Of a stretch of 64,000 nt of DNA, positions 24,417 to 27,660 are shown piece after piece. The notes beneath the pieces are model-generated. The model was given only the letters and a program-made list of their open reading frames with translations. It was not told the origin of the DNA and made no database searches. Numbering within the stretch: the stretch's first letter is position 1; each line of letters opens with the position of its first letter. Made by a program: the position numbers and the translations under genes. The stretch lies in contig NC_042997.1 in the NCBI RefSeq assembly GCF_006345805.1, forward strand, positions 11,408,001-11,472,000. Reading direction: 5' to 3'. The stretch is from Octopus sinensis. Its lineage: Eukaryota.

Positions 24417-24504
24417 ACACACACACACAGACACACAGACACACAGACACACACACACACACTCACACACACACACACACAATGTTTGCTTTTATGTTTC
24501 TTTC

Positions 24505-24775
24505 TTTTACTTTCTTTTATTTGTTTCAGTCATTTGCTGCCTGCGGCCATGCTGGAGCACCGCCTTTAGTCGAATCAAATTGACTAGTACTTATTCTATC
24601 GGTCTCTCTTTGCCGAACCGCTAAGTTACGGGCACGTAAACACACCAGCATCGGTTGTCAAGCGATGTTGGGGTGGGGTGCAAACACAGACACACAAACA
24701 TATCTATCTATATATATATATATATATACATATTTACGACGGGCTTCTTTTCAGTTTTCGTCTACCCACTCCTGC
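24505..24775 (-). mobile_element. SINE family A, partial or deleted copy
   Basis: Reverse-complement match with internal deletions. Confidence 0.85.
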
Positions 24776-24799
24776 TGTGTGGTAAGTAGTTTAGTTATA

Positions 24800-26810
24800 G
24801 TAGCTTGCTAACGCACACGCGCTGTTAGTCAGTTTCTTCCAGTTGAACCAGAGGGGACGTGAGTTAGCTAGCTCCGTCCAATTACAGAAAAAAGACCAAA
24901 AACAGAGAAAGCTGTGGAGGTAAGTGACTTTGTTTGTTGTGAGCTGGGCATAATTTATTGCGTGCGAATTATTTTTTCAGTAGATTGTGTCCAGCTCTGA
25001 GACAATTTCACCTGCTCTCGGCGGCTGCTGTTTTTGTGTTTATTGAAAAAAAAAAAAAAACCAGTGGAGGGGCGTATCTTCGTCCGAATGATTGGAACCC
25101 AATACAGTTGAAGTTACCGTTGGCGGTGGCCAGTGTTGTGGTCGGTTTTGTTGGATTTATTTTACCATTGGACGGCCAGGAGTACCTTTTCGGCCGAAAA
25201 ATTGTTTCCTTTGTCGGATTTTGAACACTCTTCTTCGAGCTATCATTTATTAAAAAAAAAAAAAATTTCTTGAACTGTTAATTATTTTATTTCTTCTCTT
25301 CTGATGTGTTTTTCTTCTTCTTTTGTGTCTTATCTTATTTTTATACCTTGAACTTTAATTGAACTTTGTGTCAATGACAAAGGAACTTCTTGTGTGGGAG
25401 TTGACACCTCCCAAAAAATATTTAAAAGAGCTTGAAAGGAAGACCGTGGTGTTGAGAACATACTCGAAGTCGCTCGACACCATAGCCGTCTTCCCAAAGG
25501 CCACCATTTTGAACGAGCTGGCGGACTACATGCCAGCCGTTAAATTTATCTCACGGGGAGTGAAATACGCAACGGTCTGGTTGCTATTTGACTCCCCAAA
25601 AGAAGCTTGCGACTTTGCAAGCCAGCCCCTTCAGGTCAAAGAAATATTGTTTCTCCCAAACTATATGGGAGAAAAATTATTGAGGGCTTGGATCTGCGGC
25701 CTACCACCCGGAGTTGAGGACTCTATCCGCCGGGGTCTGGGTGGTAGCAGTGCCAAGCTGCTAAATGTAAAAGTGTTGCCTGCGGCTGATTGGGAGGGAT
25801 CGAAAGCTGTTTTGACCCTATGGACCCAATCAGCCGAAAGTCTGGTTTTTCCAGATTTCTTGAGGATGGCCGGGTCCAGGTATCCGGTGATGCTTGAGGG
25901 ACGCCCCCCCCAAGTGTCACCTGTGCCTGGAGACCGGTCACATTAAGAAGAACTGACCCAGGGACCAAAGTAGGATCCTGGAGCAGTTAATGGTGGAATC
26001 TCTCCCTGCTCCCCCAATGGAGGGAGAGAAACAGAACGAGGAAATTGCTACATCCTCAAAAAAGAAAAGAAAGATGGGCAACAATGGTGACCCACCGAAA
26101 GACCCGGGAGCTGCGGGAGAAAAAGAGGACCCGTTGTGTGCAACACAGGAACCTCACCCTCCCGCGGCCCAGGGAAAAAAAGGAAAAAAAAGAAGAAAGA
26201 GAAACGGGACGCCGCCGGCGGATTGTAACACGCAGACGGCGTCTCCCATGCCTCCTCAGGCGGGTGTGCCGCCGGAGAATCAATATGTGGTCCTCTTCCA
26301 CAAAGGAGGAACGCTTGAAAACGAGATAGGTAAATTGAGAAGGAGAGGCCAATGGGAGGGACTTCGGTCCTGCACGAAGGACCCCGAGTGGCCTTCGCAG
26401 GTGGCTGCGGAGGTCCTATGGGATACCGATCTGTGAAGGATCGTGAATTCCTTCCCGGAGGACTCCTTTCAATTTATACCTGCATGGTACGGCCTGACAA
26501 AGAATGATTGCCTCAATGAAACAATAGCGCTGGTCGGCCGGGTGACTTGAACTTTTTGAATGTTTTAAAAAGAAAAATTGTATCACATTGAGAAAGAGAT
26601 TCATTGCCTCATTGTGACATTGTGAAATTTTGTGACTTTTTGAATTTTTTGAAAAAAGAACATTGTCTTAGAGAAGCGGAAGTCGGCGGGCGCTTTCGTC
26701 TTCTCCCATCACCATCTTTGTTCCATCACCATCATTCATACCATCAATGTCTACGTCCAGCCCGCAAAGCTACATCTATGTACTGCCTTCATGGCAAATT
26801 TAATGAATAA
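24800..26810 (+). mobile_element. ORF1-only L1/Tx1-type non-autonomous retrotransposon (HAL1-like)
   Basis: A 16-bp direct repeat AAGTAGTTTAGTTATA lies at 24784-24799 and 26811-26826. Inside are a ~570-bp 5' UTR, a gag-like ORF1 and a short 3' UTR ending in a TGCC-ttcat-GGCA hairpin and AATAAA. There is no EN or RT. Confidence 0.7.
25374..26550 (+). pseudogene. LINE ORF1/gag-like protein with CCHC zinc knuckle, disrupted
   Basis: Removing one C from the C8 run (25904-25911) gives EGRPPKCHLCLETGHIKKN*P (CX2CX4HX4, last C replaced by a stop), in frame with ORF 25990-26436. The frame stays open past the TGA at 26434 until 26550. Confidence 0.8.
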
Positions 26811-26953
26811 AAGTAGTTTAGTTATAATTAAAAAAAAAACAATTTTACATATTAATCTATGGGTTACTCTATACTTTTAGTAGAAGACGATAGAGTTCAA
26901 CAGTGTTCATGTTTAAGAATAACAGAGGGATAGATAGATAGAGAGAGAGAGAA

Positions 26954-27011
<58 letters not shown>

Positions 27012-27660
27012 CTCAAGTCAAATCAGTGATTACATTTCCGAACCACGGTGTCGTTTAACTGGTCTTTCTGTCGACTATTTCATCTGAATTTGAACTCAGA
27101 ACGCGAAGACGGGCGAAATGCCGCTAAGCATTTTGTCTGGCGCGCTAACGATTCTGCCACCTCCCCTCCTTATTTTATTCATACATCAGCATGGCCGCAG
27201 CTCTGAACTGAAACTAGAAAAAAGAAATATTGATGGTCATTTTAGGCAGTGCATCTGGACTATATTTTATGCATATTAGTGATTAATCTAATTCCTTATA
27301 TATTTGTTCACGACAGCAACAAAAGCAACAGACTCCATTTTTCTGGGCACCAAAGATCACAGTTCAAGAGATGGCGAAAGAAGTCACTGTGTACCCGGTT
27401 CCGGAAACCGACCACAAAGCACCCTTTACTTCCTACCATAACCGGACATCATTTTGTGACAAATGTATGTAACTGATTTTCAGTCAGTTAGAGAGGGTTC
27501 GAAAGGGAAAAGAAAAATGAACCCTAGCAAGAGACTATTAAACAAAAGTGGGGATGAAACCCACTTCAGGACGATGACAACGACAACGTTGTCAACATGG
27601 AATTTGCATTCCTTCGAATGAGTAACCAGCACCTAGATTTATTTAAAGAATGAACAATAC

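Follow-up and report, generated by a model that had tools for sequence, protein, structure and literature searches.

An old ORF1-only retroposon family at a fixed base of a SINE-like repeat in Octopus sinensis, probably mobilised by a co-targeting LINE

The 64-kb stretch of the Octopus sinensis genome analysed here, hereafter the window, contains an element of about 2.0 kb. Judged from its sequence, this element belongs to an old and propagating family of ORF1-only retroposons related to L1/Tx1-type LINEs and represents a full-length but decayed copy. The best explanation of all observations, with a probability of roughly 0.85, is an old ORF1-only family that inserts at a fixed base of a SINE-like repeat and is mobilised in trans by an autonomous partner. 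The original prediction had recognised the ORF1-only element and its TSD; it had overlooked the fixed SINE base, the co-targeting partner and the two target-related sequences within the element, a look-alike at the 5' end and an antisense copy in the 3' UTR.

The window element is bounded by AAGTAGTTTAGTTATA, an exact 16-bp direct repeat present on the plus strand at 24784-24799 (left target-site duplication, TSD) and 26811-26826 (right TSD). Exact-repeat comparison returned it as the sole 16-mer outside low complexity common to both ends of the element, and the 16-bp TSD proposed earlier around a 2.0-kb unit was thus recovered exactly. The host SINE at 24737-24789 is rearranged. Its reverse-strand 3' part is joined to its reverse-strand first bases (24737-24774, minus strand, a rearranged or deleted remnant identified by blast of the flank against a SINE copy from elsewhere in the window), followed by a 15-bp forward head, CTGTGTGGT^AAGTAG (24775-24789, plus strand), which holds the family insertion site and has non-SINE flank downstream. 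Because the target retains only these 15 bp of the SINE head, the TSD can be fixed at 16 bp and the 13 bases after it recognised as element-borne. These bases, GTAGCTTGCTAAC (24800-24812, plus strand), form a canonical target copy that is not part of the locus's own target and therefore arrived with the element; recurrent left-junction variants elsewhere identify it as carried by the element.

The remaining parts all lie on the plus strand. The 5' UTR (24800-25373) is one of several exchangeable types and may hold an internal Pol II promoter. ORF1 (25374-26550, ~391 codons) extends from the ATG at 25374 to the TGA at 26548-26550; two RRMs, a CCHC knuckle, a basic disordered linker and a C-terminal domain of ~90 aa are predicted in its product. 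The frame has decayed through a frameshift in a C-run (25904-25911) and in-frame TGA codons at 25954 and 26434; compared with each of four other copies, it also lacks 15 bp near 25718, a loss that keeps the reading frame. As the knuckle lies at 25915-25956 and the first stop takes the place of its last Cys, the CCHC motif is broken in the window copy. The frame of ~390 codons with one frameshift and two stops was hence described correctly, but its designation as gag-like applies only in the loose sense of a predicted pair of RRMs with a knuckle.

The 3' UTR (26551-26810) measures 260 bp. It includes the antisense target copy GCAAAGCTAC (26764-26773), which covaries with the target variant family-wide, and a terminal 4-bp hairpin (26784-26796) in common with the autonomous partner; an AATAAA spans the element/TSD junction (26806-26811) and no poly(A) tail follows it. 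The length, the hairpin and the AATAAA agree with the earlier description. The AATAAA overlaps the TSD, and the predicted stability of the hairpin region does not exceed that of shuffled sequences (z 0.22). The partner's ORF2 had no tblastn match in the whole 64-kb window, in agreement with the reported lack of endonuclease and RT. On either side of the insertion, at 24490-24700 and 27010-27230 of the window, lie other short repeats of very high copy number. Contigs of four sequencing runs from three other organisms covered the element body, and none of the joints listed from them represented an empty allele of the window element.

A DNA search of the octopus's own genome gave at least 61 matches with 40 of 2773 candidates scored, and exact tail motifs were counted at 667 sites of the GCTA type and 310 of the GCTTC type, compared with 0 for reversed controls. 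Full-length copies, ~2.0-2.4 kb between their repeats, occurred at unrelated loci, and 5'-truncated copies with their own TSDs exist. A search with the N-terminal half of ORF1 alone, blind to everything downstream, returned at least 151 matches. None of the 30 ORF1-selected loci fetched had an ORF2 match, and most of them reached the same tail ~1.4-1.55 kb past the ATG. At 20 loci picked for open frames, the intact frames comprised 393-439 aa, ORF2 was absent in every case, and the junction was located ~270-355 bp after the frame in 18. One locus (L078) yielded a weak RT match, an apparent exception only, as this copy is split by a 3.2-kb nested insertion. The tail motifs, the loci without ORF2 and the 20 intact frames bear out the predicted propagating family. 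The same ORF1-to-3'UTR junction recurred at many loci, the check that had been proposed against a one-off deletion, and such a deletion no longer accounts for the element.

The family forms a long branch with 100% support on an ORF1 tree of 31 rows, and the other ORF1s sampled were 24-33% identical to it. No close autonomous parent was present among 21 ORF2 loci and 30 ORF1-selected loci, with 150 of ~9-10 thousand candidates scored per search. The partner described below has an ORF1 only ~27% identical to that of the family and only the last ~30 nt in common with it, which indicates an old independent lineage and not mammalian HAL1. A subfamily at six loci (L085, L093, L187, L191, L192 and L196) carries part of the 3' UTR in duplicate, so that an incomplete terminal hairpin also occurs ~250 bp upstream of the 3' end. 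A second, shorter family of ~1.1-1.4 kb uses the same target base and has a different tail (L145:6169-7579, minus strand; also L171, L250 and L235). The ORF1-like frame of its L145 copy is ~41% identical to that of the partner and far from the window lineage, with no space for an ORF2; this shorter family likely had an independent ORF1-only origin.

The structure model of ORF1 reached a mean pLDDT of 57, with values of 60-85 in the N-terminal half, and matched tandem-RRM proteins (E ~4e-5), the CCHC knuckle coming after the predicted RRMs. Pfam contained no family for the ORF1-only protein, and specifically no match to an L1 ORF1 family; homology was found to the ORF1 of resident two-ORF LINEs (E 5e-16). 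For the C-terminal domain, one weak match was obtained among 51 autonomous loci. The C-terminal parts, like the 5' UTRs, are interchanged among the ORF1-only subfamilies. Among the matches listed, the closest protein was an uncharacterised one of Octopus sinensis with 59% identity, and a single octopus protein was listed whether the query was an intact ORF1 or an alignment (A1). In public annotation, LOC115225585, listed as an uncharacterised gene of the host, is an ORF1 copy.

The dN/dS comparison among copies suggested by the original prediction gave a ratio of ~0.2 over aa 8-199 in every dS bin above 0.1, including those above 0.8 and beyond 1. It was based on 20 natural copies picked for long open frames, a selection biased against stops that hardly affects the ratio. 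Over the same residues and copies, shared changes had a dN/dS of 0.18 versus 0.42 for private changes (Fisher p 2e-5). The linker and the C-terminal domain were less constrained, with ~0.3-0.55 above a dS of 0.05. At the level of substitution patterns, purifying selection on ORF1 between ORF1-only subfamilies is thus shown.

Within a SINE-like repeat, the family inserts at a single position of the head, GGT^AAGTAG. The copies terminate in ...AATA followed by AAGTAGCTTGCT(A/T)ACCAACCACATGG, the head of this very abundant repeat, and 409 exact junctions compare with 51,408 exact empty sites. The TSDs span 14-16 bp at GGT^AAG[T/A]AG. According to PMC4494074, target specificity is recognised when one sequence type makes up >20% of the flanks; here AAGTA came next in all 30 tail-selected copies (22 in the SINE, three at the 5' end of another member and five in non-SINE sequence), and AAGAAG followed 27 of 30 TTC tails. 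The target repeat shows A/B-box-like words and CCTTGGG, the CORE word of CORE-type SINEs (PMC5786205). ARAGORN identified 0 tRNA genes in the window, and Rfam gave no tRNA match on a locus with a split SINE head (L002).

Particular left-junction variants recurred at independent loci (7, 4, 3 and 3 of 39), with an ordinary SINE on the right side wherever that side was correctly located; 16 of the 39 rows were left out of this left/right comparison, the junction finder having picked an internal false site. The recurrence of left variants opposite an ordinary SINE indicates that the 5' target look-alike came with the element, and every copy bears such a look-alike at its own 5' end. Copies also occur in head-to-tail arrays of up to five units. 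Arrays of three to five units with mixed subfamilies were observed at L145, L143, L144 and L148, and the autonomous partner is included in those of L145 and L152. At L010, a 5'-truncated copy has entered the SINE in opposite orientation, at a quasi-palindromic GGTAAG...CTTACC segment.

Among 30 junctions sampled by position, 19 had the tail type of the window element (type A) and 11 a second type (type B). ORF2 was located upstream of 10 of the 11 type-B tails, compared with none of the 19 type-A tails. Full-length type-B elements are 5.45-5.48 kb long, insert at the same base and have the same last ~30 nt as the ORF1-only family. Pfam assigned zf-CCHC to their ORF1 and Exo_endo_phos (APE), RVT_1 and zf-RVT to their ORF2, whose best solved relative was human L1 ORF2p (E 3e-65), with R2 at 6e-20. 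More than 30 copies of this partner are 97-99% identical in the endonuclease, and one (L152) has an open ORF2 frame of 1129 aa with an ORF1-only copy directly after it. The 5' parts of the partner and the ORF1-only family have nothing in common beyond the target look-alike and a short motif, GACG[T/C]G. We provisionally take the partner to be a Tx1-type element on the basis of sequence motifs and target specificity; an RT search returned 1151 matches, mostly unnamed, with no named Tx1 reference among them. Seven other Tx1-like loci have different flanks and tails. The common site, TSD length and terminus make it likely that the ORF1-only family is copied and inserted in trans by the endonuclease and RT of this co-targeting partner.

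Two origins without a dedicated ORF1-only family have to be set against this mobilisation in trans. A processed pseudogene of a host RRM/zinc-knuckle gene would agree with the predicted fold, which resembles host tandem-RRM proteins, and with the host-gene annotation of one copy, but the homology of the ORF to the ORF1 of two-ORF LINEs, the hundreds of copies at a single target base and the terminus in common with a LINE leave this origin, also named in the original prediction, with hardly any credibility. The copies might also have arisen separately, each by an internal deletion in an autonomous LINE, or have been amplified as passengers of the SINE; internally deleted autonomous copies are indeed known (L061, 4.5 kb), and the target repeat is itself mobile. 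Separate deletions or passive amplification are very improbable given the identical ORF1-to-3'UTR junction at many loci, 5'-truncated copies with TSDs of their own, copies at non-SINE AAGTA sites and the lack of an autonomous element with a close ORF1 among the sampled loci. For most copies they are already refuted by the absence of ORF2 from both sets of loci and by the purifying selection between subfamilies.

The reverse complement of the target is present in the 3' UTR ~45 nt from the end in the ORF1-only family and ~70 nt from the end in the partner. It can be compared between two target variants, since an older SINE variant, AAGAAG, has 3,817 empty sites and 112 junctions. Tails selected by GCTTC were followed by AAGAAG in 27 of 30 cases, by AAGTAG in none and by other sequence in three, and tails selected by GCTA (GCTAC type) were followed by AAGTA without exception (30/30). 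When copies were instead selected by target, those at AAGTAG comprised 19 with TAC only, two with both motifs, none with TTC only and nine with neither, and those at AAGAAG comprised 12 with TTC, one with TAC and 17 with neither. Pooled and de-duplicated, the ORF1-only copies amounted to 64 TAC/T, 29 TTC/A, 3 TAC/A, 0 TTC/T and 9 other, and the autonomous-type copies to 12 TAC/T, 2 TTC/A and 4 unscored. TAC-type copies occupied AAGAAG sites in 3 of 67 cases; their absence there from the tail-selected set (0/30) is no significant avoidance against a baseline of ~7%.

Complementarity of at least 7 nt to the copy's own flank was found in 67 of 105 ORF1-only rows (controls 0-8 of 105), a figure that is partly circular because some rows had been picked by the motif. 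Under motif-independent selection, it was found in 12 of 18 autonomous-type rows compared with 0 of 18 in three controls, and in none of the seven other Tx1-like loci. When the folded sequence was extended by 14 nt of flank, pairing between motif and flank formed in six of seven cases, and swapping the base cost 2-5 kcal/mol in those six. The read-through fold of the window copy was no more stable than shuffles (z 0.25), and that of the partner gave z -1.84. The terminal hairpin is conserved with one compensatory pair (UA in 24 versus GC in 6 of 31), largely within one subgroup. The tail/target covariation suggests that the antisense motif pairs with the read-through target RNA. We lean towards a function of the motif, and regard a role in steering target choice as doubtful.

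The covariation has a competing explanation, in which the endonuclease alone sets the target and the tail/target match is a by-product of age and of the spread of a single new tail by template switching. Both the GCTTC/AAGAAG copies and the sequences flanking them are indeed older (flank identity 0.88 vs 0.945), so age explains part of the match. The TAC tails sometimes seen at AAGAAG sites, the visible exchange of UTRs and C-terminal domains among subfamilies and the statement in PMC4494074 that the endonuclease is the main determinant of the target point in the same direction. If subfamilies exchange tails, switches could be overcounted and repeated change mimicked. Against a by-product, the motif occurs in different contexts, at its two distances from the end, and switches in both ORF1-only and autonomous tails, the latter with the complementarity in motif-unselected rows described above. 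In a phylogeny of the terminal 200 nt, built with the motif base masked from 90 rows after six long branches had been dropped from 96, the tail state changed six times, and monophyly was rejected for each tail state (AU p < 2e-4). Five independent pairs changed in the same direction in most random pairings and never in the opposite one, which amounts to only p 0.0625. Taken together, we consider target setting by the endonuclease alone unlikely but a serious competitor. At L203, three contigs from four putative RNA runs span the 3' junction with fewer than 31 bases on one side and without strand information, and they are compatible with read-through as well as with its absence.

Mobilisation in trans by the partner may proceed as follows. 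The ~2-kb unit would be transcribed, likely by Pol II, and transcription likely continues 10-30 nt beyond the junction AATAAA into the duplicated target. The element's own ORF1p, predicted to be RRM-RRM-CCHC, likely coats the element RNA in cis, and the partner's ORF2p likely recognises the terminal hairpin and tail that both elements have in common. ORF2p would then nick GGT^AAG[T/A]AG, the site at which the 14-16-bp TSDs are found. The read-through segment may pair initially with the covarying antisense copy in the 3' UTR and subsequently with the nicked primer strand; this two-step pairing would account for 3' junctions that are precise and lack poly(A). The look-alike brought by the element at its 5' end regenerates the site and gives rise to the head-to-tail arrays. 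More speculatively, Tx1-type LINEs and ORF1-only parasites that arose independently at least twice might form a guild whose landing site is picked partly by RNA; its transcripts would carry site copies at both ends, and the antisense copy would fold onto the read-through 3' tag and free it to the nicked DNA. Such a preference would be heritable, could be retargeted by base changes in the RNA and might have tracked SINE evolution through repeated compensatory changes; we hold this wider scenario only tentatively.

L1-type elements carry a poly(A) tail and have no strict target sequence, HeT-A forms head-to-tail arrays, and R1Bm reads through into the flanking target. ORF1-only LINE derivatives are known as HAL1 (from L1), HeT-A (from Jockey) and Ag-Sponge (from CR1) (PMC5786205; PMC5753468). 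The octopus family resembles HAL1, which arose more than once, in being non-autonomous, in encoding ORF1 only and in having spread as a family with TSDs. It differs in its ORF1, predicted to be RRM-RRM-CCHC and akin to resident Tx1-type ORF1s and not to mammalian L1 ORF1, and in being sequence-specific and free of poly(A) (it ends in ...AATA before AAG[T/A]A), in its cephalopod host and in the absence of a close parent among the loci sampled. The family works like HAL1 and lacks two features of HAL1 membership, so a literal HAL1-like identity, as first proposed, is not upheld. With HeT-A and Ag-Sponge it shares a single ORF1-type protein and the reliance on an autonomous partner, and HeT-A is targeted too (PMC5786205), but to chromosome ends and not to an internal SINE base. 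A LINE-derived ORF1 with a LINE-like 3' end and without RT, the class feature given by Kojima (2018), is found in the octopus family. The list of non-autonomous LINEs with ORF1 in the accessible part of PMC5786205 names no Tx1-type member; the family adds a site-specific, Tx1-type one to the short list formed by HAL1, HeT-A and Ag-Sponge. With ORF1 long kept under selection in an element that borrows ORF2, the family also bears on why ORF1 should be required in cis.

Precise integration can be helped by bases of the target that the RNA carries, as described for a co-transcribed flanking target (PMC4494074) and for primer pairing (PMC11194090), and in this respect the octopus family is similar to R1/R2. 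It differs from them by its internal antisense target copy, whose covariation with the target suggests an intramolecular stem or a strand-exchange step. The natural T/A pair of targets and tails, together with a young and intact-looking partner, makes the role of RNA in the targeting of APE-type LINEs testable by a single compensatory base pair. A contribution of RNA to target choice is relevant to retrotransposon-based tools for site-specific insertion.

Within the target-specific Tx1 clade, Tx1 inserts in Tx1D, Tx1-Mar in Mariner-N4_AMi, with SINEU as its dependant, and Keno in U2 (PMC4494074). As in the octopus, APE-RT LINEs of this clade target another repeat and non-autonomous dependants use the same target. 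The octopus system differs in that its target is a SINE head, its dependants encode ORF1 and its partner is a putative member of the clade; the accessible part of PMC4494074 makes no mention of a 3' UTR that carries the target in antisense. Neither an ORF1-only or SINE-targeting Tx1 element in cephalopods nor a Tx1 element with such a 3' UTR was described in the open literature searched; Repbase, supplementary files or subscription journals may hold such families. Annotation of Octopus vulgaris lists 13 recently active L1-Tx1 families, and the main text of that source as accessed contains neither 'target' nor 'ORF1' (PMC13282606). In Octopus sinensis, seven loci (L153-L156, L158, L164 and L168) represent at least three other Tx1-like two-ORF families with ORF2 60-67% identical to that of the partner. 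Some have open frames of more than 1100 aa, and all finish in AATAAAGA. The downstream flanks of L158 and L164 are similar to each other and may represent a second target.
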